A stretch of DNA of 64,000 bases from Candidatus Nanoarchaeia archaeon (GCA_028714375.1 JAQTMK010000002.1:21812-85811); one strand, 5' to 3'; shown: positions 15,266-57,231, counted from the stretch's first letter. Translations and numbers: made by a program. Notes: generated by a model from the sequence alone, not told the origin.

Positions 15266-15348
15266 TTTTACTTTATTAATGGGTGAGACAAACTTTAAAT
15301 ATATTATTCTACAAAAAAATAGATAAAAGAGAGGTTCTATTCAAGAAT

Positions 15349-17897: not shown

Positions 17898-17898
17898 A

Positions 17899-19320: not shown

Positions 19321-19351
19321 GTTTTTTTACCCTATTTGCTTGTTTAAAAAT

Positions 19352-20308: not shown

Positions 20309-20354
20309 AGGTATCTAGGATTAAATCCATTTAATAAGATTTCTGAACAAAAAA

Positions 20355-37740: not shown

Positions 37741-38445
37741 ACTAATATCTTTGCTCTCACTAAAATGAAATGCTTTTTTTCTTAACAAACAATTATGACA
37801 TTTCCCACAATGGATTGGGAGATTACCTCTAAAACCGCCACCATTATAACAACTGTAAGTATATTGCCATGGAACTTTTAATTTACTTCCAATTTCAACA
37901 ACCTCTGGTTTATCTTTGTCAATAAAAGGAGCTAAAAATTTATATCCTCCATGAAATGTAGCTTCCTCACTTAGTAAATTTAATTTCTTTAAAAATTCAG
38001 GAGTTGTATCTTTCAGTTGAACCTGTCCTTCGTCTTTTATTCCAAGATAAACATCCCATCTTTCCTTTGTTGAGATAAACAAAGATTCAGCATGGCTTAA
38101 TCCAACCAAACCAAAAATAGCATTCCTGCATGGAACCCAGTATAATATCTCATGTTCCTGTTCTTTTTTAATATCTTTTAAATCTTCATCCCTGACATCC
38201 GGTAGTTTATCTTTTCTGTTAATCAAAGATGTGCTAATTTTTCCAAGCCATTCCAGGTTAATTTCTTTGAATTCAGCATTTAATTCATAAGCTATTTTTT
38301 TAACACAAAATCTTTCTTCTTCAAGTGGTTTTTGACCATAATTAAAGAATAATAATATCATTTTTTTAGGATTCATAGATTTAACTTTATATGCAACAGC
38401 CACACTATCAAGTCCTCCCGAACACAAAATAATTGCATTATTCAT
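37726..38445 (-). CDS. queC: QueC-like PP-loop ATPase (7-cyano-7-deazaguanine synthase family)
   Basis: PP-loop ILCSGGLDS near the N-terminus and a C-terminal zinc-binding cluster CYNGGGFRGNLPIHCGKCHNCLLRKKAF, as in QueC. Confidence 0.7.
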   Translation of the reverse strand: MNNAIILCSGGLDSVAVAYKVKSMNPKKMILLFFNYGQKPLEEERFCVKKIAYELNAEFKEINLEWLGKISTSLINRKDKLPDVRDEDLKDIKKEQEHEILYWVPCRNAIFGLVGLSHAESLFISTKERWDVYLGIKDEGQVQLKDTTPEFLKKLNLLSEEATFHGGYKFLAPFIDKDKPEVVEIGSKLKVPWQYTYSCYNGGGFRGNLPIHCGKCHNCLLRKKAFHFSESKDISLYLS

Positions 38446-41600: not shown

Positions 41601-43316
41601 ATGTCTGAGGAAAATCTTCTAAAAGAAAAGTTTAAAGAAATAAAAAATGATAAATTAATCTTTATTCTGTTAGTTATTGTGATTATTCTGGGTATCTTTA
41701 CCAGAGTTCAGGATACTTCTGGAATCAGTTACTGGGGGGATGATGAATCAACTATCCCAGTTGGATTATTATTTTTTTATCCCCATACATATTTTCCAGG
41801 ACTTTCTGGAGTGTCAGAACCCCCACTAGGAAATCTTATTATTGCATCTGGATGCATGTTATCTGGAGAAGATTTCTCCAAAGTTACGGAGATTCAACCT
41901 TCATTTTATCCTGGAAGAGAACTACTCCTGGGAGAGCCTTTAATTAATGCGCAGGATTATTGCCATGCCCCCATAATCCTTTTCGGAATCCTCTTTTTCT
42001 TAGCCGTTATAGTTATTGCAATTTTATTGTTAAACCGATACTCTGCAATTTATGTAATTTCATTTTTTGCATTTTTGCCTGAATTATTAACATATTCAAG
42101 ATATATTCACACAGATATAATTTATATGACATTCTCAGCAATAGGTTTGATCTTCCTGTTCCTTTTCTTTAAATCAGAAAAACAAACCAAAAAAGAAAAA
42201 CTATTTTTAATTCTTTCAGTTTCTTTTTTTGGATTAGCCTCTGCAACTAAGTTTCCAGGATTGGGTTTTATAGCTTTTGCAGGGATAATCTTCCTAATAA
42301 AATTCTGGGATGAGATAAAAACAACTTCTAATGAAAAAATAAAACCCTTGGTAATTTTTGCCATAGAATCAATAATTGCATTTTTATTCTTCTTTTTATT
42401 GCCATTCCAGCTAAATCCAAAAAATCTGATAGATGTGTTAAAATCATATTCTACTGTGTATAGTGATGTCTCAGGTTTTACATTTGGTAGTTTATTTTTT
42501 AAGAATATTTACAATTTATTTTTGAACGTCAATATTCTAGACCTTATCCTGCTGATCGTTTCAATTTACATAATATATAAATTAATAAAAAATAAAGAAA
42601 AAACAAAGGAAGAAAAATTTATTATTTATCTTTCAAGCTGGTTTATCCTCCTAAGTTTCTTTTCATATGCATTAAAATTATTCAGAATATCTATCCCATT
42701 CCTAATGGGAGTAATGTGTTTGGTATCTTTGGTATTTTCAAATAAATATTATCCATTAAAGAAAAACCGAAAATTAATTTTTGGTATTTTTATAATCATT
42801 TATTTGTTATTCTCAGTATTTAGTTCCCTATCAAACAGTCCAACATTCTTAAATAAGAATTCATTGGTATGCTCTATAAGTCCGGATGAAAGTTCATGCA
42901 ATCCAAATCCTATGAATCATGCTGCAAGACAGATTTCAGACTATCTAAAACCAATACTTAAAGAAGAAGATACATTTATTCCAATCACTCCGGTAACCCT
43001 TACTTATTATCTGAATCGTGGAGAATCTCTTTATAATCTACAATTTAATTCTCAGTTCGAACAGCAGTTTAAAAAATCTGCAGACTTAGCAGATTATATT
43101 GCCTACTATCACCCAGGGAATAAATCAGTAAGGTTTGTTATTATAAATCCAAATCGTCTACCAGAACAAAAAGGATTCTACAGTTTATATCAGGAGTTCA
43201 CTCCAACCAAAATAATCAAACTTGCAGGCAAAGATGCAGTTTATATTTATGATTTAAAGAATTTATCTAAAAAAGACATTGGGATAAATACAGCACCTGG
43301 TACAAACACTATTTAA
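41601..43316 (+). CDS. Large polytopic membrane protein, probable GT-C-fold glycosyltransferase
   Basis: At least 12 TM segments, an acidic first-loop motif YWGDDEST, and a large C-terminal extracytoplasmic domain. Architecture is like ArnT/PMT/AglB-type transferases. Confidence 0.45.
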   Translation: MSEENLLKEKFKEIKNDKLIFILLVIVIILGIFTRVQDTSGISYWGDDESTIPVGLLFFYPHTYFPGLSGVSEPPLGNLIIASGCMLSGEDFSKVTEIQPSFYPGRELLLGEPLINAQDYCHAPIILFGILFFLAVIVIAILLLNRYSAIYVISFFAFLPELLTYSRYIHTDIIYMTFSAIGLIFLFLFFKSEKQTKKEKLFLILSVSFFGLASATKFPGLGFIAFAGIIFLIKFWDEIKTTSNEKIKPLVIFAIESIIAFLFFFLLPFQLNPKNLIDVLKSYSTVYSDVSGFTFGSLFFKNIYNLFLNVNILDLILLIVSIYIIYKLIKNKEKTKEEKFIIYLSSWFILLSFFSYALKLFRISIPFLMGVMCLVSLVFSNKYYPLKKNRKLIFGIFIIIYLLFSVFSSLSNSPTFLNKNSLVCSISPDESSCNPNPMNHAARQISDYLKPILKEEDTFIPITPVTLTYYLNRGESLYNLQFNSQFEQQFKKSADLADYIAYYHPGNKSVRFVIINPNRLPEQKGFYSLYQEFTPTKIIKLAGKDAVYIYDLKNLSKKDIGINTAPGTNTI

Positions 43317-44324
43317 TTTTTTACCATTAAATAATTTTCTTGTGTTCTTCATATTTTGACTATTCCAGATTTGTTTGATTTTTTTATCCTTCACATTGCC
43401 AGCAGAATCCCTTAACATTGTACATGGGAATATTTCCCCATAACTGTCAACTAACAAACTTCCCCATAATATTGAACAGGGTTGAACTTCATTATATAAT
43501 CTTAATCCTAAATGAACTTCATTGGTTTCAGCCTCTTTTTTAAGATCAGAAATAACATTCCAAAATTCATCTTTCTCTTCCTTTGGAATTAAAAGTTCCT
43601 GAGGCAAAATCCACTGACTTGGACAAACATCTCGGTTATAAATTCCGTCTACATAATTTTTTATCTCAGGAGTTAAAACCGTAATATACTGGGCATCATA
43701 CTCCCTAATCTCCATTTTTTTCATTAAAGCAGGCATTTCCTTAAGGTGCTTATAATTTAGATTGGAAATAACAGTATTGACTCTCAGGAATGGTTTATCA
43801 AGATTTAATTCTTTTTTATACCTATTTATCATTTCATTTGCTTTCATAACTTTTTCAAAACTTCCGCTAACACCTCTGATGTCATCATGTATTTCAGCAG
43901 TAGGAGCATCTAATGAAAAACATAATTCATCTAATCCAGATTCAACAATCTGTTTAGCCATTTTTTCATTAATCATAAAAGCATTTGTAGTTATTGTAGT
44001 AAAAAATTTCAGTCTTTTAGCAACTTTGATATAATCAAAAATAGATTTTTCCAAGAAAGGTTCTCCTCCGCAAAACATCAAAGTTTTTGTCAAAGGATTC
44101 CATTTCCTTATATCTTGAATAACCTGAACTATTTCAGAATCAGTCAATAATTTTTTGTTTTCAGTATGTTTAGAAAGACCATCTTTCCATAGATTACATT
44201 GTTTGCATTTTAAGCAGCATCTTTCATTGACTTCAATTACAGCATAAAATGGTGGTGTAAAAGCCCTGTCTGTAAATGTCAGTAACTGAAATCCCTTTTC
44301 CATAAGTTTCCTTACTTTTGGCAT
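43263..44324 (-). CDS. Radical SAM enzyme with a C-terminal SPASM domain
   Basis: AVIEVNERCCLKCKQCNLW (CxxxCxxC), GGEPFL, and C-terminal Cys clusters (CSILWG...FPCTML...CTRCCIYPN) typical of SPASM auxiliary Fe-S sites. Confidence 0.8.
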   Translation of the reverse strand: MPKVRKLMEKGFQLLTFTDRAFTPPFYAVIEVNERCCLKCKQCNLWKDGLSKHTENKKLLTDSEIVQVIQDIRKWNPLTKTLMFCGGEPFLEKSIFDYIKVAKRLKFFTTITTNAFMINEKMAKQIVESGLDELCFSLDAPTAEIHDDIRGVSGSFEKVMKANEMINRYKKELNLDKPFLRVNTVISNLNYKHLKEMPALMKKMEIREYDAQYITVLTPEIKNYVDGIYNRDVCPSQWILPQELLIPKEEKDEFWNVISDLKKEAETNEVHLGLRLYNEVQPCSILWGSLLVDSYGEIFPCTMLRDSAGNVKDKKIKQIWNSQNMKNTRKLFNGKKLNSVCTRCCIYPNVFFR

Positions 44325-44425
44325 AAAACCTTAACCAAATTTTGATTTAAATAATTATCTTATATTAAAACCTATCAACAAGAGTATAGAAAACTATAAA
44401 TAACCTCAAAAAGAGCATTTACTAA

Positions 44426-45100
44426 ATGAAAACTTCAGTAATATTCTTAACTTTAAACGAAGAAGCTTCTTTGGAAGAAATGTACAACCAAATGCCAAAC
44501 AAACAAGATATTTACGAATTTCTATTAGTAGATGGCGGTTCTAAAGATAAAACTCTAGAAATAGCTAAAAGATTAGGAATGAAAATAGTAAACCAAAAAG
44601 AAACCGGAAGAGGAAGAGGTTTCTATGAAGGAATGAAAGCAGCAAAAGGGGATATTCTAATTTTTTTCAGTCCAGATGGAAACGAAGACCCAAGAGAAAT
44701 ACCTTTAATGATTAAAAAAATAGAAGAAGGTTATGATATGGTTATTGCTTCAAGATTCATGAAACAATCAGCAAGTCATGATGTTACATTCATAAGAAGA
44801 ATAGGAAACAGAAGTTATGCAATACTAACAAACTTAGTTTTTGGAACAAGATTAAAAGATGCGGTAAATGGTTTCAGGGCAATAAGAAAAGATATAATGG
44901 AAAGATTAAATCTGGAAGCAAAAAGATTTGACATAGAGATGGAAATGACAACAAAAGTCTTAAAACTAAAAGGAAAAATAATAGAAGTTCCAACAACAGA
45001 ACCAAAAAGAATTGAAGGTAGGTCAAGATTAAGAACCTTTTACGATGGTTATTTAATATATAAAAGATTTTTAAAATCATTAAAATACAAAGAAATATGA
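44426..45100 (+). CDS. GT2 glycosyltransferase, dolichyl-phosphate sugar synthase-like
   Basis: VIFLTLNEEASL ... LLVDGGSKDKTLEIAKRLG ... SPDGNEDP (DxD). Confidence 0.8.
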   Translation: MKTSVIFLTLNEEASLEEMYNQMPNKQDIYEFLLVDGGSKDKTLEIAKRLGMKIVNQKETGRGRGFYEGMKAAKGDILIFFSPDGNEDPREIPLMIKKIEEGYDMVIASRFMKQSASHDVTFIRRIGNRSYAILTNLVFGTRLKDAVNGFRAIRKDIMERLNLEAKRFDIEMEMTTKVLKLKGKIIEVPTTEPKRIEGRSRLRTFYDGYLIYKRFLKSLKYKEI

Positions 45101-46416
45101 AATGCCTGTTTTTAAACCCACCAAACAAGGAAAAATTTGTAAAAGAAGGTAGATGCCAGCACGAAGCTAGTTTCTTCTCTGCATTATACCCTCCAATAAC
45201 TTTGGCAATTTGTGCACAGATAGCAAAAGATAGTTCTCATGAAGTTGATTTCATAGATGCAATTGCAGGCAATATCACAATAGAGGATTTCCTGGAAAAC
45301 ATAAAAGAATATGATTTTATACTGGTGGATATAACAACACCGACATTCATTAACGATGCAAACATAATAAAAAAGATAAAAGAAAAATATCCAAAAACAT
45401 TTATAGCGATTTATGGATTCCATGCAAATTATGATCCAAAAAGATCTCTGAAAGAAAGCAACGCAGATGCAGTTTTAGTAGGAGAACCAGAAGCCCATAT
45501 CCAAGACTTCCTAAAGAATCCAAAAAAAGGTGTAACAGAAAAAAAAGAAGTTGAAGATTTAGACAGTTTACCTTTTCCTGCAAGGGATTTAATGTCTTTG
45601 GAAAAGTACAGGCTGGCAAATACAGGCCAGAAATTCACAACAATAGTTACAGGGAGAGGCTGTCCATTTAATTGTTCCTTCTGTGTTGTTCCGTTTAATT
45701 ACGGAAGAAAAGCAAGACTAAGAAGTCCTGAAATAATTGTAAAAGAAATCAAAGAATGTGTTGAAAAATATAATATTAAAAATTTCTGGTTGAACAATGA
45801 TACTTTCACAATAAAAAAAGATCAGGTTATGGAATTATGCAATTTAATAGAAAAACACAAACTAAAAATAAATTGGATGAGCAATTCAAGAGTTGATACT
45901 GTAGACTTGGAAATGTTCCAGGCAATGAAAAAATCCGGATGTTGGTTATTATCATTTGGAATAGAGTCAGGAAATCCTGAAATATTAAAGAACATAAACA
46001 AAAATATCACGTTGGATAAAGTTCAAAACACCATCAAGAATGCAAAAAAAGCAAAATTACTAACCATGGCTCATTATGTTTTGGGTTTACCAGGAGAAAC
46101 CGAACAAACAATTGATAATACAATTAACTTTGCAATCAAATTAGATTCTGATTTTGCTGATTTTTTTATCTTAACTCCATTCCCTGGAGCTAAAATTTAT
46201 GAAGACTTTAAGAAAGAAGGAATATTAGAAATAGAAAACTGGGATTCATACAGATATGCTCAAAAGATATTTAAAACAGAGCTTCCTTTAGAAAAATATC
46301 AAAAACAGGCCTACAGAAAGTTTTATTTAAGGCCAAAAAAGATAATACCTATATTAAAAATTGTTAAACCTGGAGCAATCTCAAGTATGTTCAGGTTCTT
46401 AAAAATACTAAAATGA
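45097..46416 (+). CDS. B12-binding-domain radical SAM enzyme
   Basis: N-terminal B12-like domain and GRGCPFNCSFCVVPF. ATGA overlaps with both the upstream GT2 and the downstream GT-C gene. Confidence 0.85.
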   Translation: MKCLFLNPPNKEKFVKEGRCQHEASFFSALYPPITLAICAQIAKDSSHEVDFIDAIAGNITIEDFLENIKEYDFILVDITTPTFINDANIIKKIKEKYPKTFIAIYGFHANYDPKRSLKESNADAVLVGEPEAHIQDFLKNPKKGVTEKKEVEDLDSLPFPARDLMSLEKYRLANTGQKFTTIVTGRGCPFNCSFCVVPFNYGRKARLRSPEIIVKEIKECVEKYNIKNFWLNNDTFTIKKDQVMELCNLIEKHKLKINWMSNSRVDTVDLEMFQAMKKSGCWLLSFGIESGNPEILKNINKNITLDKVQNTIKNAKKAKLLTMAHYVLGLPGETEQTIDNTINFAIKLDSDFADFFILTPFPGAKIYEDFKKEGILEIENWDSYRYAQKIFKTELPLEKYQKQAYRKFYLRPKKIIPILKIVKPGAISSMFRFLKILK

Positions 46417-47921
46417 ACATAGAAAAAATAAAAACAAACAAATATCTTATTTTATTAATTTTAATATTAGTTCTGGCCTTTTTCCTTAGGGTAAAATACT
46501 TTAATGCAAATGAAGGAGTTTGGTGGGATGAAGCAGAATATCTTAACATGGCTAAAAAATGGTCCCTCCACATACCATCTGATGTAAGTGATAAACGTCC
46601 AATCTTAATCTCCTTTATATTTTATTTGATGTATTCAATCGGATTAGGGGAAACTAGTTTCAGGATCTTAATGCTGCTCTTCTCTTTAGCCGGAGTTCTG
46701 ATGATGTATTTATTTACAAAAGAATTATTTCATAACAAAAAAACAGCGCTGATAGCGTCATTCATTTCAGCAGTATTTTATCTATCTTTATTTTATTGTC
46801 AAAGATTGCTTGTAGAATTCCCGTCTTTAACTCTAACAATCTTAGTTTACTATCTTTTCTGGAAAGGCTATATGAAAGACAAACCAAAATGTCTGTACTG
46901 GATGGGTTTTGTTTTAGCTCTGTCAGTTATGCTAAGGTTTACAGGAGGAATAGCAGCAATAATCATTTTCTTATTCATACTGATAAAAGATAGGCTAAAA
47001 ATAATTAAAAACAAACATCTTTGGATTACATTGTTGATCTTTATTTTAACCTTAACTCCTTACTTCATCTATTCATACAAAGCCTATGGAAATCCTATTC
47101 AATCCTTTATTACTTCTGGAGGTTCAGCAACAGTAGCAGAAACTGGGGGGGCATTTACTTTCTCAATGGGTCTAAAACAGTTAGGAACCTATTTGACATT
47201 CTTACCAGAATATACAAAAATCTTATTCTTTATCTTCCTTTTAATAGGATTATATAAATTACTGGATCTTGTGTTAGGATTTGACTTAATGTTAAAGGGC
47301 AAAGAAGATAAGAATTATTCTTATTTATTATTGGTTCTGATTTTTTTAATTCCATTAATATATTTCAGTTTCTTTGTAAACCACTTCGAAGATAGGTATG
47401 GTCTTTATATGGTGCCTACTTTATTTATTTTAGCTTCATTTGGGATAATTATCCTTTATGACTTAGTTTCAAAATACAGCAAAGAGCTTGCAGTAGTTAT
47501 CATTTTAATTATTCTCGCTGTAGGTGGCTATCAACAATACACAACTGCCGATTCTTTAATTAAAAGCAGAGCATCCAGTTTTGGTGCTTTAAATCCTGCA
47601 GGGAAATGGATTAAGGCAAATTCAAATCCAAATGATAATGTTGTAAGTGTAAACACTCAGATGGAACTCCAGTATTACTCTGAAAGATACACTCGTGGAC
47701 TTGGAAAAAATGAAACAGATGCAGTTGAATACATACAGAAAAACAAACCTAAATATTTGGTTGTTTCAGGATACTATCCTTCACAGGAATGGGAGTTTAA
47801 GTTTGTAGATTATTATACGGATCATCTAAAACCTGTAATGGCTTATGATTCAAACAGCCAAATAATAACAACGCAAGAACAAAAACCAATCCTAATTATT
47901 TATGAGATTCTTTATAATTGA
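46413..47921 (+). CDS. GT-C-fold membrane glycosyltransferase (ArnT/PMT_2-like, polyprenyl-phosphate-sugar dependent)
   Basis: Polytopic protein with a first-loop acidic motif VWWDEAEYLNMAKK and the overall ArnT/GT39/GT83-like architecture. Confidence 0.65.
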   Translation: MNIEKIKTNKYLILLILILVLAFFLRVKYFNANEGVWWDEAEYLNMAKKWSLHIPSDVSDKRPILISFIFYLMYSIGLGETSFRILMLLFSLAGVLMMYLFTKELFHNKKTALIASFISAVFYLSLFYCQRLLVEFPSLTLTILVYYLFWKGYMKDKPKCLYWMGFVLALSVMLRFTGGIAAIIIFLFILIKDRLKIIKNKHLWITLLIFILTLTPYFIYSYKAYGNPIQSFITSGGSATVAETGGAFTFSMGLKQLGTYLTFLPEYTKILFFIFLLIGLYKLLDLVLGFDLMLKGKEDKNYSYLLLVLIFLIPLIYFSFFVNHFEDRYGLYMVPTLFILASFGIIILYDLVSKYSKELAVVIILIILAVGGYQQYTTADSLIKSRASSFGALNPAGKWIKANSNPNDNVVSVNTQMELQYYSERYTRGLGKNETDAVEYIQKNKPKYLVVSGYYPSQEWEFKFVDYYTDHLKPVMAYDSNSQIITTQEQKPILIIYEILYN

Positions 47922-48980
47922 TCCAAACTTTTCCCTTGAACGTTCCCATTCAAATTGTTTGGCAAACTTAATCCCATTGTCTTCAAATCTTTTCCTTAAT
48001 TTAGAATCAATTAAAACCTTAATGATCTTCTCGCTTAGTTCTTTAACATTTCCATATTCATACAAAAATCCAGTCTCATCGTCTTTAACAGTCTCTTTTA
48101 AACCAGGAACGTTTGAATTGATGACAACAGTTCCAGAAGCACTCGCCTCAATAGCAGTCAAACCCCATCCTTCTTTCAAAGAAGTATTAACCAAAACCCA
48201 TGAAGAACCATAAATCTTAGATAGTTCTGGGTTAGGAATAAAACCTAAAAACTTAACAGAGTTTTCTAATTTAAGCTCCTTAACTAACCTCTTTAGTTCT
48301 TCTTCTTTATCTCCTCTCCCAACAATAAGTAACTTAGCGTTTTTGATCTTCTCCAAAACAAGGGGCATTGCCTTAATTAAAACAGGGATACTTTTATACT
48401 TATTTAATCTTCCAACAAAACAAATAGTTGGTTCTTTTGTTTTTTCTTCTTTCTTTAATCCATGATATTCGACTCCAGGATTAACAATTTCAATTTTATT
48501 TTTATTAAGTCCAAGTTTAACAAAATCCTCCTTAGAACTTTCAGAAATGGTAATAAATTTCATATTTTTATAGATTAATTTCATAATTCTTTTTTCAAAA
48601 AATCTTGGGAACCAGCCAATCCCTCTTCCTAGTTCTTTAAGATAAATGTCCCCTAGTTTATGGAAAAAAATTCCTATCTTTTTCTTTCCAATATACATTG
48701 GAGTTCCCCAAGGAACACCATTATAAGCCTCAACAACAAAATCATAGTTATTAAACAAATAATGGAAAAAAGCATAAAACACAACAGTTACCCTAGTTCC
48801 GTTCCTTATGAAATTAATATTGTCATATTTCTCTTTCTTCTTACATCTCTTGAACGCAGAACAATACCAATAAACTTCATTTTTCTCAGCCAAATTAGTA
48901 AATAAATTATGCAGGTATAGTTCAGCCCCTCCAGCGTCGGGGTTTTTTATATCTCTCCAGTTAAGCAATAATATTTTCAT
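47892..48980 (-). CDS. GT4 (GT-B fold) glycosyltransferase
   Basis: MKILLLNWRDIKNPDAGGAELYLHNLF and the C-terminal EGWGLTAIEASASGTVVINS (EX7E). Confidence 0.8.
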   Translation of the reverse strand: MKILLLNWRDIKNPDAGGAELYLHNLFTNLAEKNEVYWYCSAFKRCKKKEKYDNINFIRNGTRVTVVFYAFFHYLFNNYDFVVEAYNGVPWGTPMYIGKKKIGIFFHKLGDIYLKELGRGIGWFPRFFEKRIMKLIYKNMKFITISESSKEDFVKLGLNKNKIEIVNPGVEYHGLKKEEKTKEPTICFVGRLNKYKSIPVLIKAMPLVLEKIKNAKLLIVGRGDKEEELKRLVKELKLENSVKFLGFIPNPELSKIYGSSWVLVNTSLKEGWGLTAIEASASGTVVINSNVPGLKETVKDDETGFLYEYGNVKELSEKIIKVLIDSKLRKRFEDNGIKFAKQFEWERSREKFGSIIKNLINN

Positions 48981-49743
48981 CTTTCAGATAAGAATAGCAG
49001 CTCTTGAAATCATATCCCTTGCTTAAGCACCATTGGATATATTTCTCAAGTATTTTTAAAATCCTGTCTCCTGTATTTTTTTTAATATAAAAAGGAACTT
49101 TTTGTGTAACCTTAACAAACTCCCATGGATGAAATCCTTCAACAATATAATCTAAATCATTCATTCTGGTCATAGCTTTGGCATAAATTAAACCTCCAAA
49201 ATTTCTAAAGGAAAAACCAAACAAAGGTAATCTAAAAAACCAAGATGTCCCCCAAGGCATTTCAATTATATCATCTTCCTTAAAGATTCTTCTGCTTTCA
49301 AAAAAGTGAAAATATCTTCCAGGAATAAAAACAGGATGCAAAGAACTGTCATAAACAAATCCAGCCTTACTCAACTGCTTAAATCCAGGACCATAACCTC
49401 TTGGAGCTCTGAATCCATAAATCTTTTTCTTGATTATTTTCTCAACCTCTTTTTTAGCATCGGTTAATCTTTTAGGCTCTTCAAATCTGTAATCATCAGA
49501 ATGGCTGTAACCATGGCATCCAATCTCATGTTTCTCAGATATTTCCCTAATCAAATCAGGATGTTTCCTGGCAAAATTCAAAGTAACAAAAAAAGTAGCT
49601 TTAATTTTATATTTATCCAATAAATCTAAAACTCTGATTAATCCCTGATAAGACTGTAGATACATCTCTTCCTCACTAATCTTAAGATTAAACTCTCTGG
49701 GTAAGTCAAATTCCTCAACATCAAAACTTAATAGTATATTCAT
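48961..49743 (-). CDS. Polysaccharide deacetylase (CE4 / NodB-homology domain)
   Basis: LSFDVEEF (DxE/TFDD-like motif 1) and IGCHGYSHSD (motif 2, HxxH). Start chosen at the internal Met (MNILLSF), which abuts the upstream GT2 stop. Confidence 0.7.
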   Translation of the reverse strand: MNILLSFDVEEFDLPREFNLKISEEEMYLQSYQGLIRVLDLLDKYKIKATFFVTLNFARKHPDLIREISEKHEIGCHGYSHSDDYRFEEPKRLTDAKKEVEKIIKKKIYGFRAPRGYGPGFKQLSKAGFVYDSSLHPVFIPGRYFHFFESRRIFKEDDIIEMPWGTSWFFRLPLFGFSFRNFGGLIYAKAMTRMNDLDYIVEGFHPWEFVKVTQKVPFYIKKNTGDRILKILEKYIQWCLSKGYDFKSCYSYLKDENIIA

Positions 49744-50438
49744 TTCCCAAACCTCAGTTTTAAAATATTCAAAAGCATAGGCCAAACATAAACCATTTTA
49801 AATGTACTCCCTTCCATATGAAAGGTAGGAATAAACATCTCAAGCATCTTAGCTTTGTTCTGTTTAAGTTTGTATAATAACTCAACATCAAAACTAAAAT
49901 TCTTACAGATAAAATCAAAATCAATTTTTTCAAGAGCCTCTCTTCTGAAAAATTTAGCTCCTGCCTGTGTATCTCTCACGTCCAATCCAAATAATAACCT
50001 GACAAGCAAATTCCATGCACGGCTTGAGATTTTTCTGACAAAAGGCTCATCCACTCTCATAAATCCTTTGTCTTTCCATTTCGAAGCCATAACAACATCA
50101 TATCTGTCCAAAAACACAAGCATGTTCTTGACAGACTCTAAGTGGAATGCATCATCAGCATCAATATAACCAATATATTTAGTATTATCTTTAAGAGCAA
50201 TCTTAAGCCCCTCTAATACAGCACCACCTTTACCCAATGCTTCAGGAAAGATAATGTAATTAAAATTTTTATGTTCTTTTTTCCATTCTTTGTAAACTTC
50301 AACACTTGGATCCTTACTTCCATTATCAACAACTAAAACATTAATACTATCACCGAAAAACCTGTCCAGAGATCTTAGAGTCCTGCCTATTCTTTTCTCT
50401 TCATTGTGTGCCGGTATTATAAATGTGTATTCAGCCAT
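49740..50438 (-). CDS. GT2 glycosyltransferase, dolichyl-phosphate sugar synthase-like
   Basis: FIIPAHNEEKRI ... VVDNGSKDPS ... IDADDAF (DxD). Confidence 0.8.
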   Translation of the reverse strand: MAEYTFIIPAHNEEKRIGRTLRSLDRFFGDSINVLVVDNGSKDPSVEVYKEWKKEHKNFNYIIFPEALGKGGAVLEGLKIALKDNTKYIGYIDADDAFHLESVKNMLVFLDRYDVVMASKWKDKGFMRVDEPFVRKISSRAWNLLVRLLFGLDVRDTQAGAKFFRREALEKIDFDFICKNFSFDVELLYKLKQNKAKMLEMFIPTFHMEGSTFKMVYVWPMLLNILKLRFGK

Positions 50439-51675
50439 GTTTGGTAGTTCCTGCGAGTATGACCATCACTAAAAATAACAAGGTCATCAGCCCAAGCATT
50501 ATGTTAACTACCACCCCTATTGTTCCATGGAACAGCCATATTAAGGCAGTTTCCAATACAACAAACCCCAGCAGAATATAAATAAATTTGTATTTTTTAA
50601 TAGATAATAAGTAGAAGCTAATTATATATATCAGGGAAAACAAAGTCATTATAATCCCAAAATATCCCAGATAACCTGCAACTCCAAAATAATCTTTTCC
50701 ATAAAGCAATCCAACTGAAAACTCTGGAAATAAAAAGTAAAACAAAGTAACAGGAACTCCAAACAATAAAACCAATCCTAATGATTTATATAATAAACTT
50801 TTAGAAGCTTCTTTGGCCTCAAACATCTCAGATGCTTTTGGAAACATAACCATACTCACACTCAAGGTTCCGAAGAAAATAATTTTTCCAAGCAAGGATA
50901 AAGCAACATAAAAACCTGCTTCAGTTGCACTTAGAAAGTGTTTAACCAGTACAACATCAATTGTATAAAGCAAAGTCAGTAAAACCAAAGAAAAGAAAAC
51001 ATAAACGCTATAATTATAAACTGCTTTCGTATCTATCTTTATTTTTGGTAACTTAAACAATTTCCTCAATGGTAAAAGAGCAATTAAAAATGCAGCAATA
51101 TAGGAAAAAGTGATTGCTAAGACAGCCCCATTAACTTTCCATCCAATATAAATAAGTAATATCCCAAAAAAGATTTTAGTTAAACCTTCAAAAACATAAC
51201 TTAACCCTAATTTTTTAAAGTTCTGTAATCCTTGTAGTATTCCTCTGTTAACTGCAATTCCAAAGGATAAAAACAAAAATGTTCCGGTAATAAAAACAGG
51301 CAAAACCTCAGATATATTCAGAAATTTAGCGATGAATGGGCTTAGTGCAAAATAAATCAGAGTCAATATTAATCCGTAAAATGACAATTTCTTTAATGAA
51401 TGCGCAAATAAGTATGATAATTTCCCTTCTTCGTTTTTAAATTCAGATGAAAATTTAGTCATACTTGTCTGAACCACAGTTAAAATAATATTAAACAGGT
51501 AAAGTATTGATAATAAAACTCCAAAAGTACCATAATCTTCAGGTCCTAATTTTCTTCCAGCAAAAAAATGAAAAACATAACCTAAAATATTAAGCAGCAT
51601 AAGTGAAGAAAATAAAATAAAATTATCTCTAAGAATCTCTTTTTCCATAATTTTCTTGAAAATCATACGAACCAT
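50431..51675 (-). CDS. MOP-superfamily oligosaccharide flippase (Wzx/AglR-like)
   Basis: Protein of 414 aa with about 12 TM segments. The N-terminus (FILFSSLMLLNILGYVFHFFAGRKLG) is Wzx-like. Confidence 0.7.
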   Translation of the reverse strand: MVRMIFKKIMEKEILRDNFILFSSLMLLNILGYVFHFFAGRKLGPEDYGTFGVLLSILYLFNIILTVVQTSMTKFSSEFKNEEGKLSYLFAHSLKKLSFYGLILTLIYFALSPFIAKFLNISEVLPVFITGTFLFLSFGIAVNRGILQGLQNFKKLGLSYVFEGLTKIFFGILLIYIGWKVNGAVLAITFSYIAAFLIALLPLRKLFKLPKIKIDTKAVYNYSVYVFFSLVLLTLLYTIDVVLVKHFLSATEAGFYVALSLLGKIIFFGTLSVSMVMFPKASEMFEAKEASKSLLYKSLGLVLLFGVPVTLFYFLFPEFSVGLLYGKDYFGVAGYLGYFGIIMTLFSLIYIISFYLLSIKKYKFIYILLGFVVLETALIWLFHGTIGVVVNIMLGLMTLLFLVMVILAGTTKHG

Positions 51676-52667
51676 ATCAATGCTCCAAAGAATAATTCAA
51701 TCAAGATAACAAATAAAGTAACCTGTTTTTCAGTAAATCTTCCAGTCCTTGTAAATATGTGTGGTAATGAATAAATCTTATCGTAATAAGATTTAACTTT
51801 CCCATTTAAATAATAACCATAACTCTTTGTGTTAAATTTAGCTCTTAATTTTAATAAAAATTCTATGAAAAAGGGTATTGAAACAATGATTGCAGCTTTC
51901 TCTATATCTCCCACAATAGCAACCACAGCTAAAGTAGCACCAATCATGTAGGTTAATGAATCTCCCGGTAAGATTTTAGCAGGATATTTATTAAAAATAA
52001 AAAATCCAATCAAAGAAACAAATACCATAAGAGCAATCAAAGCAGCAAGATAACTATGATTAACAAAAGCAAACAACCCCAGGGAGCCAATTGCAATAAT
52101 ACCTAACCCGGCCTCCATTCCATTAAAACCAGCAAGCATGTTAACCATATTAGAAGCACCGATAAATCCTAAAGGAATAAACAGTAAAGGATAGAGCATT
52201 CCGACATCAACTCTTCCAATAAGTGGCAAAGCCATAATTGTCTGCCCCGCTCCGATAATCATCAAAGGTACTGCAGCAGCCAAAGTTAAAATTGGTTTTT
52301 GCCACTGTTTTAATCCAGCAGAACTCTCATGATCTTTTCTGATAAACAAATCATCAACAAAACCAATAAACGTAACTATGAATATTGAAAACATTGAAGC
52401 GAACAATATCATTAAATCTTGTAAGTCTAATATGATGCCTGAATCTCCTGGGAAAAAAAATTTTCTTAAAAATATGAATAACATTAATCCACCCAAAGTT
52501 CCTGCTGCAACAGCAAGACCTCCAGAAAGGGGAACTAAGGGGGTATTTTCCTTATTCATGTCCTTAACAACCAATCCGATCCTTCTAAGATACCTAATTA
52601 AAAAAGGAGTAAAAATTATAACTATTAAAAAAGCGATTGCTGCACACAGAAAAGCAATATATTTCAT
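51663..52667 (-). CDS. aglH: MraY/WecA-family polyprenyl-phosphate GlcNAc-1-phosphate transferase (AglH-like; first step of N-glycan assembly)
   Basis: Polytopic protein with the conserved FIGFVDDLF aspartate motif and MraY/WecA-like topology. Confidence 0.75.
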   Translation of the reverse strand: MKYIAFLCAAIAFLIVIIFTPFLIRYLRRIGLVVKDMNKENTPLVPLSGGLAVAAGTLGGLMLFIFLRKFFFPGDSGIILDLQDLMILFASMFSIFIVTFIGFVDDLFIRKDHESSAGLKQWQKPILTLAAAVPLMIIGAGQTIMALPLIGRVDVGMLYPLLFIPLGFIGASNMVNMLAGFNGMEAGLGIIAIGSLGLFAFVNHSYLAALIALMVFVSLIGFFIFNKYPAKILPGDSLTYMIGATLAVVAIVGDIEKAAIIVSIPFFIEFLLKLRAKFNTKSYGYYLNGKVKSYYDKIYSLPHIFTRTGRFTEKQVTLFVILIELFFGALIWFV

Positions 52668-52701: not shown

Positions 52702-55323
52702 CTATTGAACTCCTTCAGGGAAATAATTTGCCAGATACATGGTTCTTAGCTCATCGCTAATACTATATCCATCCGGATAATTGATTTTCCATACCTTTGT
52801 AGGTCCGATAATTCTTCCATTATAGTATGCCAAAGGAACCCCCAAAGATTCATCATTATAAACTAACTTGAATGCAGGAGTTTCCTGTTCAAATAAGTAT
52901 AATCTTCCAAAGTTTCCTTTCATAACTTTATTAGACATATATAATAGAGCTCCGATCCTGTCTCCTTGAGTTCCATCAATCTTAGTTATATATCTTAAGC
53001 ATCCTCCGATTGGACTTTCAATATCAAGCTTATAAATCTGTTTTTCAAAGTAGATACAATTAATCGGAACATTATATTGTTTATTATTATATATCACAAA
53101 AGCATAAGGAATCCCGGTAAATGTGACGTTCCCATCTGTGTTTACACTTATTGGAACTAAAAATCCTCCAATACCAGCACCAAATCTGGGCAATAAAGTA
53201 TCATCAATAATTATATCCTCATCTATAGCAGTCCCACCCAAATAAACATAGCTGGTTTCATTTCTTGTTTCTTGAGTCTTAGTTCTATCAATAACAAAAG
53301 AACTAATCTGAGTATACCTATCAAAGTCCTTATTAGATCCGATTGATGAAAATGCAGGGTATTTTCCAATCTCATCACTAACCATTAAAAGATAACTTGC
53401 ATTGTGGGCATATAAAAATTCTAAAGATTCAGAATCATTCTGTCCAGTTATTACATTTCTCCCCATAAAATAGTTCCATGAACCTATCGCATTTCCTCCA
53501 TCAGTTACTGTGGCTCTTTCTCCACCGGTTTGCACCCAATATCCATAATCCCACCAATGGGCAAAGACAGCATCTTTTGGAGTATTTTCTCTTACCCACT
53601 GCATAGCATACTGCCACTGTCCATTATAGATTGGTCCAGTAACTTTAGCGATACTGATATCATCTTTAGCATAAGTAATAAATGGATTTATCATTAAAAT
53701 TAAGATTAAACCAATTGCTAAAATTTTATAATTTTTATTTTTAATTTTTTCATTTGCAAACAAAATTCCTTCATACAATAAATATGCTACCAAAATGGCA
53801 ACTATTGGCGAGAATATGAATAATAATCTTACTGCTCTTAATGCAGCTAACAAAGTAATTATAAACCATATCAAAACAAAAACATAAGACTTAGAACTTT
53901 CAAAGATTTTTCCAAATTCTTCTTTATTACTCTTAAACAATCTATAGTAACCATAAATTAAAAGTCCTAAAAATATTAATGTAGAACCAACAAGCAAGAA
54001 GATTGCCAGATTTGAGTGCCCATTAAGGGACGCAGCATCCATGGAGTATTTATGTATTCCAAACAAAACAATAAAAACTGTATAAGCAACAGTCAAATAA
54101 ATTTTTGATTTTAATTTTTTAACCAAATTCCAAAATAGCAAGATTGATCCGGCCATAAAAAATAAAGTAACCCAATTCCCATAGTTTCCAAGTATATCAC
54201 TAAAATAGGATTCATGGCTCTCTGCCACTGTTTTACTCCATCTGTCTTCCAGTGGATTAACAAGTTCATGGACTAATGCATGGGGTTTATCAATTATAAA
54301 TAAAGGATCAACAAAGACGGAAGCAAACAAAATCAATAATACTAATGATATAATTGTAATTAAAAATCCCTTTGGAAGTTTCTCAGTAATAGTTTCCTTA
54401 ATTTTGATTAACTTAGCTTCAAAGACAGTATAGTAAACTAAACCCATAAAAAATGCAACAAATGCGATACCAGATGTAAATGAAACCAATAAAGCAGTTA
54501 GGCTAAACTTCCCCAAAATTACAATTGGTAACATAACAATAAACCAAGAGGAGTAAAGTAAAAAGTCTTTTTTCTCAAATTTAAAGAATAATAGCGAAAC
54601 AATTACAAATAATCCTAATATCATATAAACAAAATTAACTCCCCCCCAAACCCTGCTTAGTATTCCAGTAGCAACTCCAGCCAAAGCACCAAACAAAATG
54701 TGCTTCCATGGTTTATCACTTTTATATCCGACAAAATAAAAGTAAAAAGTCATAAAAAAGAATATTGTTGCCATTGGCTCTTTATCTGCAACACCGGCCA
54801 TGGTCCTATAAAGAAATGTTGGAATTACAGCTAAAAATGCAGTTGCTATTAAAGCAATCTTATCATTAAATAACTTTCTAACCAATAAGAAGAAGAAAAT
54901 AAGTCCGATAACAAATGCGATTGGTGGATATAGATTAGCAGCTAACTCAATAGTCATGTTTGGATTAAATATGCTTAAAAATTTAAACAAGTAAACAATG
55001 GAATAACTTAAAAAGCTAAATTCCACTATGCTCGAGTATCCAATCGGAACATATCTCATATAGTCAACCGAGGGTAAACTTCCAGTTTCCAAAATAGTTC
55101 TCGAATATCTTAAAAATGCGAATGGATCTAAATCTGCAGTAATATATCCTCCGGTTGTCGCATCTTTTAATAAAGGCACATTAAGGGTTCTGATATAAAA
55201 ACCAAAAATTAAGATTGCAACTAAAATAACTATACTTATCCATAAATTATTCTTTTTTAAGTTCTTTAATAAATTTCTTTTCCTCTCTTCCACTATACTA
55301 GAACTATTTTCCAAGTCATTCAT
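52702..55323 (-). CDS. aglB: Oligosaccharyltransferase AglB (STT3 family)
   Basis: 873 aa, N-terminal 13-TM domain and a large C-terminal domain carrying the WWDYGYW catalytic-site motif (AVFAHWWDYGYWVQ). Confidence 0.9.
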   Translation of the reverse strand: MNDLENSSSIVEERKRNLLKNLKKNNLWISIVILVAILIFGFYIRTLNVPLLKDATTGGYITADLDPFAFLRYSRTILETGSLPSVDYMRYVPIGYSSIVEFSFLSYSIVYLFKFLSIFNPNMTIELAANLYPPIAFVIGLIFFFLLVRKLFNDKIALIATAFLAVIPTFLYRTMAGVADKEPMATIFFFMTFYFYFVGYKSDKPWKHILFGALAGVATGILSRVWGGVNFVYMILGLFVIVSLLFFKFEKKDFLLYSSWFIVMLPIVILGKFSLTALLVSFTSGIAFVAFFMGLVYYTVFEAKLIKIKETITEKLPKGFLITIISLVLLILFASVFVDPLFIIDKPHALVHELVNPLEDRWSKTVAESHESYFSDILGNYGNWVTLFFMAGSILLFWNLVKKLKSKIYLTVAYTVFIVLFGIHKYSMDAASLNGHSNLAIFLLVGSTLIFLGLLIYGYYRLFKSNKEEFGKIFESSKSYVFVLIWFIITLLAALRAVRLLFIFSPIVAILVAYLLYEGILFANEKIKNKNYKILAIGLILILMINPFITYAKDDISIAKVTGPIYNGQWQYAMQWVRENTPKDAVFAHWWDYGYWVQTGGERATVTDGGNAIGSWNYFMGRNVITGQNDSESLEFLYAHNASYLLMVSDEIGKYPAFSSIGSNKDFDRYTQISSFVIDRTKTQETRNETSYVYLGGTAIDEDIIIDDTLLPRFGAGIGGFLVPISVNTDGNVTFTGIPYAFVIYNNKQYNVPINCIYFEKQIYKLDIESPIGGCLRYITKIDGTQGDRIGALLYMSNKVMKGNFGRLYLFEQETPAFKLVYNDESLGVPLAYYNGRIIGPTKVWKINYPDGYSISDELRTMYLANYFPEGVQ

Positions 55324-55443: not shown

Positions 55444-57231
55444 ATGAAAGCGGTAATCCTTGCAGGAGGGGAAACTATTAAAGAAAGAGGTAGAGAAATC
55501 CCTATAAGTCTAGTTGAAATCAATGGCAAAAAATTTTTAGAATATCAGATTACTTTATTAAAAAATAATTTCATTAATGAAATAATTTTATGTGTAAATT
55601 CCAAAAAAGAGATTGAAGATTATTTTGGGGATGGTTCAAGATTCGGAGTTAAGATCCACTATTCAGAAGAACCCACAGCATTAGGTACTGCAGGAGCAAT
55701 AAAAAAAGTATCATCTTTGATTGGAAATGAATCTTTTATAATTTTAAACGGAGATGTTTATATTCAGGATGGATTAGGAGAATTAATAATAAAACATAAA
55801 GAAAACAAAGAAAAGGAAAACATAATTCTAACAGTAAGCTATGTCCAGGTAGAAAATAGCAAAGCTTTGATGGCTGGATTAATAGATTCTAAGTATATAA
55901 TCAAAAGTTTACTAAAAGGAATAAACACGGAAGATCTAACAAATTCCGGAGTTTATATTGCAGAACCTTCTCTTCTTTCGTTCATCAGAGAAGATGAAAA
56001 AGTCTCATTGGAAAATCAGATATTTCCAATGTTGTATGAAAAAAAACTGGTAAATGGAGAAATGTTATATCCCAATTATTTTACAGACATAGGAACAATC
56101 GAAAGATTAAAAGGATTTAGAGAATATATTAAATGTCCAACAAAATCTATCCCAGTAGCAGAAATTTCTTTAGATGGAAATGAATTAAAATATATGAATG
56201 ATTGTTTAAACACAAATTGGATATCTTCTGCAGGAGAATATATCCGAAGATTTGAAGAAGAATTTGCAGAATTTTGTGACTGCAAACATGGAGTTGCAGT
56301 AAATAACGGAACCTCAGCCTTGCAGCTTGCTTTGGCCACCATTGGAATCAAAGAGGGGGATGAAGTTATTATTCCATCCCTGACATTTATAGCAACTGCA
56401 AATGCGGTTAGATATTGTAATGCTACCCCAATATTGGTAGATTCTGACAAAGAGACCTGGAATATGGACCCAAAGAAAATAGAAGAAAGGATTACTCCAA
56501 AAACTAAAGCAATCATCCCAGTTCATCTTTATGGGAATCCCTGTGATATGGAGTCTATAATTAATCTTGCAAGCAAGTATGGGTTATATATAATTGAAGA
56601 TTCTGCAGAAGCCCATGGTGCAGAGTTTATGGGAAGAAAAGCAGGGTCATTAAGCCATATTTCGTGTTTTAGTTTCTATGGGAATAAAATCATAACTACC
56701 GGAGAAGGTGGGATGTGTTTGACAAATAGTGAAGAACTTGCAGAAAGAATGAAATATCTAAGAGATCATGGTATGAAAAAAGAAAAAAGATACTGGCATG
56801 ATGAAATCGGATTCAATTTCAGGATGACTAATATGCAGGCAGCAATCGGTCTTGCCCAATTGGAAAAAATAAAAGAATTGATTAACCGGAAAATAAAAAA
56901 TGCCAATCACTATAATCAAAACTTAAAAGGAATAAATGGAATAACCTTACCTCCAACAACCAAAAATTCAAAAAATGTGTTTTGGATGTATACGATTTTA
57001 ATCGAGGATGATTTTCCATTATCAAAAGAAGAGCTTACGAGAAAATTAAAAGAACATGGAGTTGATACAAGACCAGCATTCTATCCTTTAAATCAGATGC
57101 CTCCCTATAAAACTCCTGAGTCCTTCCCGATTGCAGAAGAAATCTCAAGAAAAGGCTTAACACTTCCATCTTCAATTAAATTGACTGAAGAACAGATCAA
57201 TTATATCTGTAATATTATAAAAAACATTTAA
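55444..57231 (+). CDS. Bifunctional fusion: sugar-1-phosphate nucleotidyltransferase (N-terminal) and DegT/DnrJ/EryC1/StrS PLP-dependent sugar aminotransferase (C-terminal)
   Basis: N-terminus MKAVILAGGETIKERGRE...GTAGAIKK (NTP-transferase G-loop). C-terminal half NWISSAGEYIRRFEEEFAEF ... FSFYGNKIITTGEGG ... LRDHGM (DegT-family with the PLP-lysine). Confidence 0.8.
   Translation: MKAVILAGGETIKERGREIPISLVEINGKKFLEYQITLLKNNFINEIILCVNSKKEIEDYFGDGSRFGVKIHYSEEPTALGTAGAIKKVSSLIGNESFIILNGDVYIQDGLGELIIKHKENKEKENIILTVSYVQVENSKALMAGLIDSKYIIKSLLKGINTEDLTNSGVYIAEPSLLSFIREDEKVSLENQIFPMLYEKKLVNGEMLYPNYFTDIGTIERLKGFREYIKCPTKSIPVAEISLDGNELKYMNDCLNTNWISSAGEYIRRFEEEFAEFCDCKHGVAVNNGTSALQLALATIGIKEGDEVIIPSLTFIATANAVRYCNATPILVDSDKETWNMDPKKIEERITPKTKAIIPVHLYGNPCDMESIINLASKYGLYIIEDSAEAHGAEFMGRKAGSLSHISCFSFYGNKIITTGEGGMCLTNSEELAERMKYLRDHGMKKEKRYWHDEIGFNFRMTNMQAAIGLAQLEKIKELINRKIKNANHYNQNLKGINGITLPPTTKNSKNVFWMYTILIEDDFPLSKEELTRKLKEHGVDTRPAFYPLNQMPPYKTPESFPIAEEISRKGLTLPSSIKLTEEQINYICNIIKNI

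Follow-up and report, generated by a model that had tools for sequence, protein, structure and literature searches.

A radical SAM enzyme gene partnered with a polyprenyl-phosphate glycose synthase-like gene in a nanoarchaeal glycosylation island: possible tailoring of lipid-linked sugars

Can a sugar be remodelled by radical chemistry after it has been loaded onto a polyprenyl phosphate and before it is installed on the cell surface? The question is raised by three genes in a 64-kb stretch of DNA (64,000 nucleotides, hereafter the window) from a metagenome-assembled genome of a DPANN archaeon, Candidatus Nanoarchaeia archaeon (GCA_028714375.1, JAQTMK010000002.1:21812-85811). The genes, hereafter the triad, encode a family 2 glycosyltransferase (GT2), a radical S-adenosylmethionine (SAM) enzyme of the 'B12-binding' type (rSAM) and a polytopic GT-C glycosyltransferase. 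An earlier note on this DNA read them as a unit in which the rSAM tailors, for example by C-methylation, the lipid-linked monosaccharide made by the GT2 before the GT-C transfers it. Our comparative analysis suggests that the rSAM and the GT2 belong together; the link to the GT-C is looser, and chemistry other than methylation is favoured.

Open reading frame (ORF) calling gave three co-directional genes on the plus strand: the GT2 at 44426-45100 (224 amino acids (aa); PF00535 at 1e-22), the rSAM at 45097-46416 (439 aa; PF02310 at 3e-11, PF04055 at 9e-29) and the GT-C at 46413-47921 (502 aa; PMT_2, PF13231, at 5e-15). Both junctions are 4-nt ATGA overlaps (ATG 45097-45099 with TGA 45098-45100; ATG 46413-46415 with TGA 46414-46416), so that the ORFs, domain labels and overlaps first described for this locus are borne out. 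A simple hydropathy scan found no transmembrane (TM) segments in the GT2 or the rSAM and about 11 in the GT-C. Upstream of the GT2 lies a 101-nt intergenic region (44325-44425), on the other side of which a radical SAM/SPASM gene (43263-44324, minus strand; PF04055 and PF13186) is transcribed divergently; its orthologues occupy the same position in two other Nanoarchaeia loci, L002 and L091 (our numbering), and are 68% and 69% identical. About 24 nt ahead of the GT2 start codon, at 44395-44402, stands a TATA-like box, TATAAATA, which suggests that a leaderless-type archaeal promoter serves the triad.

The GT2 has the GT-A catalytic domain of its family (PF00535, 81 bits against a cut-off of 23.3). 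Its best curated matches were all polyprenyl-phosphate glycose synthases, namely AglJ, the haloarchaeal dolichyl phosphate (Dol-P) hexose transferase, PgfS, PpgS and ArnC. Every named equivalog cut-off was missed, the best being AglJ (TIGR04182, 127 against 325 bits), and the protein is therefore placed at family level only. The best solved relative was DPMS of Pyrococcus furiosus (PfDPMS; 5mlz, 9e-25), followed by ArnC and GtrB. Taking residue roles as described for PfDPMS (PMC5526996), the metal-binding Asp (D91→D84) and both arginines for the Dol-P phosphate (R117→R110, R131→R124) are kept; in the A-loop, R202 corresponds to R195 and K208 to R201, and Q93 corresponds to N86. The guanine-reading D39 and the mannose-contacting D89 are changed to G37 and S82, as are S135 to N128 and K178 to D169. 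The predicted active site supports assignment to the polyprenyl-phosphate glycose synthase type, in line with the Dol-P-sugar synthase-like label given previously, and the donor is probably a nucleotide sugar other than GDP-mannose.

A search of the PDB with the GT-C sequence gave no match. Its predicted model, which scored 91.6 in the predicted local distance difference test (pLDDT), includes a small C-terminal alpha/beta domain, and all fold matches at E<1e-3 were GT-Cs: AglB/STT3, ArnT (TM-score 0.66/0.62), ALG12, ALG9, PglB, Pmt4, DPY19 and AftB. The family is small, with 67 matches, most of them from Nanoarchaeota and labelled 'GT39'; in the first outer loop, W37 and D39 of a WWDE motif were invariant across 37 homologues (alignment A2). 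The third gene is supported as a genuine GT-C by this model, and the earlier ArnT/PMT-like label holds.

The rSAM contains a radical SAM domain (PF04055, 101 bits) and a PF02310 domain (43.5 bits against a cut-off of 32.1). More than 3,600 homologues were matched at E ≤ 1e-10. The closest external proteins, 36-42% identical and nearer than any paralogue in the window, define a subfamily (alignment A1) in which the CxxxCxxC motif, C189/C193/C196 in the triad protein, is invariant. The best curated family was HpnJ (TIGR03471), matched over the full length at 239.9 bits against a cut-off of 577.6, and the best PDB profile match was AprD4 (6fd2, 190 bits), with the B12-dependent methylase QCMT next (134 bits). 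When the predicted model (pLDDT 93.2) was compared by Foldseek, paromamine-bound AprD4 was matched with TM-scores of 0.81/0.79 (E 1e-27, root mean square deviation 3.8 Å), QCMT with 0.69/0.72, and TsrM, CysS, OxsB and TokK with about 0.65-0.70. The rSAM reached neither the AprD4 cut-off (NF033070, 132 against 500 bits) nor that of any methylase equivalog. Judged by profiles and predicted fold, it belongs to a subfamily of its own, to which AprD4 and HpnJ stand nearest.

In a neighbour-joining tree (200 bootstraps), the triad rSAM grouped with proteins from loci L003, L004, L008, L009, L012, L018, L087, L088 (two copies), L089 and L090. A GT2 is present in the same gene string in eight of these ten loci, and most sampled loci of close rSAM relatives likewise carry a small GT2 of the AglJ/DPMS type. 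In Altiarchaeales (L004-6) a compact operon, situated between pilus-type genes and Cdc6/ThrRS, encodes a GT2 of 223 aa, a PMT_2 protein, a 586-aa membrane protein, the rSAM and a family 4 glycosyltransferase (GT4). The locus from Aenigmarchaeota (L088) has a PMT gene divergent from a GT2 gene (224 aa), two rSAM genes and then an LPG_synthase_TM gene; that from Pacearchaeota (L089) has a PMT gene and, further on, GT2, DUF2304, a 69-aa ORF and rSAM; and L090 has GT2, DUF2304, a methyltransferase and rSAM. In L096, genes for PMT, GtrA_DPMS_TM, GT2, DUF2304 and rSAM follow one another, the rSAM with an 11-nt overlap. GacJ, of the DUF2304 family, forms a complex with and stimulates GacI, the synthase of undecaprenyl phosphate (Und-P)-linked GlcNAc, whose product, once flipped, serves the GT-C GacL as donor; Rv3632 acts likewise on PpgS (bioRxiv 10.1101/180810). 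With a GacJ-family protein, GtrA, a GT2 and a GT-C side by side, L096 is a textbook three-component system to which an rSAM is attached.

In order to assess this partnership against local background, a species-level scan was made of 80 loci with an rSAM 25-44% identical to that of the triad, using our own ORF extraction and iterated profiles. GT2 genes filled 15 of the 147 gene slots adjoining the rSAM (10.2%), 14 of these 15 on the same strand, as compared with 21 of 445 slots (4.7%) at ranks 3-7 (adjacent-slot odds ratio 2.3, p = 0.026). Gene slots were used in place of distance bins, whose apparent 15-fold GT2 enrichment at ≤150 nt was rejected as inflated because every neighbouring gene has an edge there. 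In the loci from Thermodesulfobacteriota, Acidobacteriaceae and Syntrophales, the rSAMs are HpnJ-like, below the cut-off, and the GT2 partners are AglJ-like, not HpnI-like. One such pair, from Thermodesulfobacteriota (L008, 8042-11422), stands alone: an IS200-family transposase gene lies about 750 nt upstream, with one unannotated ORF between, and chemotaxis-type genes lie on the other side, which is consistent with the pair moving as a unit.

The B12-binding, radical SAM and GT2 domains also occur in one polypeptide. The 797-aa protein encoded at L044 (10001-12394) belongs to an rSAM::GT2 fusion family of about 70 clusters, reaching down to 38% identity, whose members are about 800 aa long (P0121-P0189) and span at least five bacterial phyla, with examples from Cloacimonadota, Wallbacteria, Riflebacteria, Planctomycetota and Desulfobacteraceae; their source annotations say no more than 'glycosyltransferase' or 'BchE-like cyclase'. 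The occurrence of the two genes side by side on one strand in other phyla, the L096 operon and the fusions indicate that the rSAM appears to be functionally tied to the GT2. This part of the tailoring proposal stands; an obligatory triad does not.

The locus seen from the GT-C side gives a reciprocal view of the pair. In L091, from a sister Nanoarchaeia genome, the GT-C is 72% identical and the flanking proteins are 63-78% identical, and the GT2 and rSAM genes are absent. The gene order there is SPASM (minus strand) and GT-C, then, on the minus strand, GT4, PF01522 deacetylase, GT2, Wzx and PF00953, as in the convergent run at 47892-52667 (minus strand) of the window, where Pfam identifies GT4, PF01522 deacetylase, small GT2, Wzx-type flippase and PF00953 phosphoglycosyltransferase genes. 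A blastn alignment pairs window 43276-44404 with L091 4861-5981 and picks up again at window 46436 (L091 6036); between the two lies an indel of about 2.03 kb (44405-46435, plus strand) that contains the GT2 and rSAM genes and no other gene. The 44325-44425 region is 72% identical in nucleotides to the L091 SPASM/GT-C intergenic region, which there stands directly before the GT-C. Since promoter, GT-C and flanks are kept without them, the GT2 and rSAM genes form a two-gene accessory cassette situated between a shared promoter region and the GT-C. L002 has genes for PMT, SPASM (minus strand), DegT, GT2 and rSAM, with DegT coupled upstream of the pair; its GT2 and rSAM are 82% and 78% identical to those of the triad. 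L093 has the GT-C, deacetylase and GT2 in the arrangement of L091 and no rSAM.

A small GT2 gene overlaps the PF01522 deacetylase gene, the two being convergent on the GT-C, in the window (48961-50438, minus strand), in L091 (8561-10035) and in L093 (2243-3741). This ArnC/ArnD-like pair is the conserved partner of the triad's GT-C family and, from gene content, looks like its primary donor pathway.

What is known of such pathways sets the frame for interpretation. The three-component systems, GtrA/GtrB/GtrV, GacI/GacJ/GacK/GacL, PpgS/Rv3632/Rv3779, ArnC/ArnD/ArnEF/ArnT and the pentofuranose systems of Kelly et al. (2024), resemble the triad in that a GT2 makes a polyprenyl-monophosphate sugar for an extracytoplasmic GT-C, and rSAM-related loci also carry the DUF2304 (GacJ-like) partner and a GtrA-type flippase. 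The triad itself differs in having neither a flippase nor a GacJ-like gene, and a GT2 without TM segments. Searches of the open-access literature found no rSAM described within any of these systems or within other polyprenyl-phosphate/GT-C or archaeal N-glycosylation systems, and no module of an AglJ-type GT2 with an AprD4/HpnJ-like rSAM. ArnD and DprE1/E2 are examples of enzymes that tailor a lipid-linked donor. Such tailoring between synthase and GT-C is established for the auxiliary epimerases of the pentofuranose systems (Kelly et al., 2024), and rSAM remodelling of a lipid-linked hexose by HpnJ and Cds has been put forward on genetic grounds (PMC13459092). Given these cases, the earlier statement that no precedent was known is too strong. 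The GT2-to-GT-C logic and donor tailoring being established, the new part would be an rSAM embedded in a polyprenyl-phosphate-sugar/GT-C system, as the gene content suggests.

We tentatively interpret the triad as a route for decorating surface glycans that is of the three-component type (Gtr/Gac/Arn-like) and to which a radical SAM tailoring enzyme has been added, and rate the chance that this is correct as a little short of even. From the comparisons above we infer a substrate, an order of steps and a chemistry. At the cytoplasmic face, the TM-less GT2 would charge dolichyl phosphate with one sugar, taken from a nucleotide sugar that is not GDP-mannose; the soluble rSAM would then abstract a hydrogen from the lipid-linked sugar and remodel it; a flippase encoded outside the operon would move the product across the membrane; and the GT-C would transfer the sugar to a surface acceptor, which may be a glycan, a glycoprotein or a lipid. 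The cassette would in this way diversify the surface glycan between closely related strains. A sugar is the likely substrate of the rSAM because its closest structure is AprD4 with paromamine and because HpnJ and Cds are proposed to act on lipid-linked hexoses. We also entertain, with more reserve, the broader proposal that a widespread rSAM clade, found in DPANN, other archaea and several bacterial phyla, acts directly on polyprenyl-phosphate-linked monosaccharides and so yields deoxy, keto, branched or rearranged sugars at the membrane for GT-C installation on the cell surface; this is possible, but we would not expect it to be the more probable outcome.

Several observations weigh against these proposals. 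The rSAM clade has moderate tree support (62%). Comparative genomics is what supports the coupling, and the link to GT-Cs is one of region and not of position: GT-Cs are enriched across these regions, yet account for about 4% of genes at every rank from the rSAM. Searches by phmmer with each GT-C of the window found no orthologue of the triad GT-C in the rSAM-anchored loci; the GT-C partners of different loci are not orthologues, the triad as such is not conserved, and the claim of a conserved orthologous triad was dropped. The bacterial GT2-rSAM pairs L008, L009 and L012 have no GT-C nearby, L003 (rSAM, carbamoyltransferase and PMT_2, with several PMT genes in the vicinity) has no nearby GT2, and L087 (Aminicenantes) has neither a GT2 nor a GT-C nearby. 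The persistence of the GT-C in L091 implies that the cassette product is perhaps not its only donor, or not its donor at all. The fused GT2s are MftF/PgaC-like, not AglJ-like, and the rSAM half falls in a neighbouring, HpnJ-like clade; the fusions therefore support rSAM-GT2 coupling in the wider clade only and were rejected as direct proof for the triad subfamily. No flippase gene lies within the triad, the Wzx-type genes of the window being at 50431-51675 and 26527-28059 and a PF03706 gene at 21788-22678. Finally, 4-nt overlaps occur at 7 of the 36 co-directional junctions in the window, and overlaps of any length at 16 of 36, so that the ATGA junctions indicate an operon and nothing more. 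When labels were shuffled over the island genes (5 small GT2, 6 GT-C-like, 6 B12-type rSAM), at least one co-directional triad arose in 25% of trials (P ~0.25) and two or more triads, irrespective of strand, in 14%. The triad is statistically unremarkable inside the window, and its significance comes from other genomes only.

A first alternative is that there is no direct pathway link, the rSAM being one of many paralogous tailoring enzymes in a fast-evolving island. Its substrate would be something other than the GT2 product, for instance a protein, the dolichol or lipid chain, or a precursor nucleotide sugar, and it would adjoin the GT2 only through shared regulation. The six B12-type and two SPASM rSAMs of the window do adjoin varied partners (family 9 glycosyltransferase (GT9), GT4, methyltransferases, lipid head-group enzymes). 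The chance expectation inside the window, the mere 2.3-fold enrichment of adjacent GT2s over local background and the lack of a GT2 or GT-C near the rSAM in L087 all suit this explanation. It does not account well for the recurrence of a same-strand, overlapping arrangement in distant phyla, including compact operons outside islands (L004, L008, L096), for the gain or loss of GT2 and rSAM together as a unit, or for the widespread rSAM::GT2 fusion, and we consider it unlikely.

A second alternative is a lipid head-group route of the HpnI/HpnJ or Cds kind, in which the GT2 glycosylates a membrane lipid or carrier, the rSAM makes a terminal, non-transferable product such as a ring-contracted cyclitol, and the GT-C is a mere neighbour under the same promoter that uses a different donor, perhaps the one made by the convergent GT2-deacetylase pair. 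Of the curated families, HpnJ matches the rSAM best. In the bacteriohopanetetrol cyclitol ether pathway (HpnI/HpnK/HpnJ) the GT2 and B12-type rSAM genes also overlap by 4 nt, HpnJ is proposed to remodel a lipid-anchored hexosamine, and hpnJ-hpnI is followed by an LPG-synthase-domain gene, a family that adjoins rSAMs in the window (21788-22678) and in L088. The GT-C that holds its place without the cassette in L091, with a deacetylase-GT2 pair as conserved partner, and the bacterial pairs without a GT-C would also be explained. However, the rSAM is 29% identical to HpnJ and scores far under its cut-off (240 against 578 bits), and true HpnJ, from the annotated Paraburkholderia hpnJ-hpnI locus (L094), sits in a separate clade with a Lawsonia plasmid rSAM (96% bootstrap). 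None of the small GT2s of the window has a BLASTP match to HpnI; the triad GT2 resembles Dol-P/Und-P glycose synthases, with the phosphate-binding arginines kept. Moreover, the pairs of L096, L089 and L090 are accompanied by GacJ-like and GtrA-like genes plus a GT-C, and the host is a DPANN archaeon without hopanoids. A true HpnI/HpnJ system was rejected on cut-off, phylogeny and type of partner GT2. Calditol synthase (Cds) of Sulfolobus acidocaldarius, compared by description only, is an archaeal rSAM for which conversion of a lipid-linked glucose to an altered head group has been proposed; its product is a terminal, ether-linked cyclitol and involves no GT-C. Unlike HpnJ, the triad rSAM is followed by a GT-C, which implies a transferable rather than a terminal product, and a full ring contraction of the HpnJ/Cds type would remove the anomeric centre and so would not fit a downstream GT-C. 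We regard the head-group route as improbable.

The third alternative retains the tailoring step and changes its chemistry: as a cobalamin-dependent class B radical SAM C-methyltransferase, the rSAM would methylate the lipid-linked monosaccharide (+14 Da) before GT-C transfer, as first suggested for this locus. The PF02310 score above the Pfam threshold and the significant fold matches to QCMT, TsrM, TokK and CysS (TM-score about 0.69) fit such an enzyme; so does the fact that most characterized B12-type rSAM enzymes are methylases, sugar C-methylases such as GenK and GenD1 among them (PMC12931638). The nearest relative by both profile (190 against ≤134 bits) and fold (TM-score 0.81 against ≤0.72) is nevertheless AprD4, which is not a methylase. 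Working with the reductase AprD3, this radical SAM 1,2-diol dehydratase removes the oxygen at C3' of an aminoglycoside sugar (PMC5461906); although it has a Rossmann-like domain, it does not bind cobalamin (PMC12931638). The name 'B12 radical SAM' therefore records a domain assignment and is no evidence of methyl transfer. The next curated families, HpnJ (proposed to be a ring-contraction enzyme) and BchE, are likewise non-methylating, and class I methyltransferases are encoded separately beside the rSAMs of L090 and L095, and one is fused to the rSAM in L082. To our knowledge, DPANN archaea are generally unable to synthesize cobalamin, which also counts against this chemistry. We found no specific support for C-methylation and give it little credence. 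A role in the maturation of ribosomally synthesized and post-translationally modified peptides, prompted by a PqqD gene near the rSAM of L090, was judged unlikely: that gene is part of a different group with the opposite arrangement, and PqqD genes are absent from the window and from the other loci examined.

For the tailoring enzyme of a three-component-type route we favour a non-methylating reaction, by analogy with AprD4 and HpnJ as nearest relatives: a dehydration or deoxygenation to a keto-deoxy sugar, or a rearrangement. AprD4, the closest solved structure and best PDB sequence match, shares the Rossmann-like N-terminal domain and acts on a sugar ring. It differs in that identity is only about 20%, that its substrate is a soluble aminoglycoside pseudodisaccharide and that the triad has no reductase corresponding to AprD3. 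Some relatives have candidate partners beside the rSAM. In L092 (329-7524), a locus reached from the GT-C side, the order is PMT, GT2, rSAM, SDR, rSAM, rSAM and GT-C, with the SDR gene (epimerase/dehydratase family) between rSAM genes, and in L002 (6116-8897) DegT lies upstream of the pair; both would fit processing of a keto-sugar from an AprD4-like dehydratase.

The window as a whole has a GC content of about 30% throughout and, from about 15 kb onward, is one large glycosylation island. The island holds an STT3/AglB oligosaccharyltransferase gene (52702-55323, minus strand), the PF00953 phosphoglycosyltransferase and two Wzx-type flippases already mentioned, GT4 and GT9, DegT aminotransferases, a carbamoyltransferase, five small GT2s and at least four PMT/PTPS-type polytopic proteins. 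Six B12-type rSAM genes are present (17899-19320 and 22675-24138, minus strand; 33634-35163, 35165-36595, 45097-46416 and 63420-64000, plus strand), along with two SPASM rSAM genes (24172-25305, plus strand; 43263-44324, minus strand). Eight rSAM genes in 64 kb is a very heavy investment within one glycosylation island for a genome-reduced DPANN archaeon. The B12-type paralogues are mutually 24-31% identical, the GT2s at most 36%, and no BLAST similarity was detected among the GT-Cs of the window; by sequence divergence the paralogues are old.

The earlier note also described two recurrences of the triad in the window; these are real but loose. In the first, placed at 15349-19320, a GT-C gene, a GT2 gene with an ATGA overlap and a minus-strand rSAM gene are indeed present. 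The GT-C (580 aa, about 12 TM segments) extends over 15283-17025 (plus strand), 15349 being an internal ATG, and the GT2 (17022-17897, plus strand; 291 aa, with C-terminal TM segments) is 36% identical to that of the triad. The rSAM gene (17899-19320) is the final gene of a separate minus-strand run starting at 24138, which by Pfam comprises, over 17899-24138, genes for rSAM, LPG_synthase_TM, a CDP-alcohol phosphatidyltransferase, two methyltransferases and a second rSAM (22675-24138; 315.7 bits to the HpnJ model). In the second, at 59787-64000, all four genes named previously were found: a small GT2 (59787-60491, plus strand), a PTPS_related protein with 9 TM segments (60474-61955), a 10-TM protein with no Pfam match (62014-63369, plus strand) and a B12-type rSAM N-terminus (from 63420, plus strand), cut by the window end. 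Of the two membrane-protein genes, that for the PTPS_related protein is on the minus strand.

A number of further features were recorded. An LPG_synthase-domain gene is found in the 17899-24138 run, beside the rSAM pair of L088 and after hpnJ-hpnI in L094 (5001-8741), and the PF03706 protein may be a flippase or membrane partner of such rSAM modules. A NodU/CmcH-type carbamoyltransferase gene directly follows a subfamily rSAM gene in two unrelated loci (L003, 9416-11110; L012, 11618-12496), and a carbamoyltransferase gene is also present in the island (28483-30246, plus strand). In Omnitrophota (L082, 9857-12196) a B12-type rSAM is fused to a class I SAM methyltransferase domain and adjoins a GT2. 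A 27-kb plasmid of the obligate intracellular pathogen Lawsonia intracellularis (L095, 3600-13230) carries genes for GT2, two DUF2304 proteins, SIS, rSAM, methyltransferases, a second rSAM and several methyltransferases; its first rSAM is the one that groups with true HpnJ (96%), even though its partner GT2 is a small one of the GacI type. Within the window, two gene fusions were seen, a nucleotidyltransferase::DegT aminotransferase (595 aa; 55444-57231, plus strand) and a purine/uridine phosphorylase::phosphoribosyltransferase (424 aa; 13991-15265, minus strand), and a QueC (7-cyano-7-deazaguanine synthase) gene (37726-38445, minus strand) is embedded among glycosyltransferase genes. Genes just left of the island encode proteins that may be secreted or exposed at the surface and that carry Kazal-type inhibitor, lamin-tail and Ig-like domains (4804-5823, plus strand; 8443-9639 and 11657-13879, minus strand), which are possible glycosylation targets.

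Three-component systems are a general surface-glycan decoration route of bacteria and archaea and drive antigenic and phage-receptor diversity, and the only tailoring known for their lipid-linked donors is deformylation or deacetylation, and epimerization. Sister genomes with the two-gene cassette (the present one or GCA_028713535) and without it (GCA_028714095) form a natural pair, so the question raised by the triad is directly testable. Should the proposal be correct, a radical SAM step would enlarge the repertoire of sugars produced at the membrane, and would give a function to a large set of proteins that now carry only the label 'B12-binding radical SAM protein' or, wrongly, 'BchE-like cyclase'. 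It would bring radical chemistry into the three-component scheme, with cassette-based variation of the surface glycan between closely related strains, and would help to account for the heavy outlay of genome-reduced DPANN archaea on radical SAM genes within their glycosylation islands.

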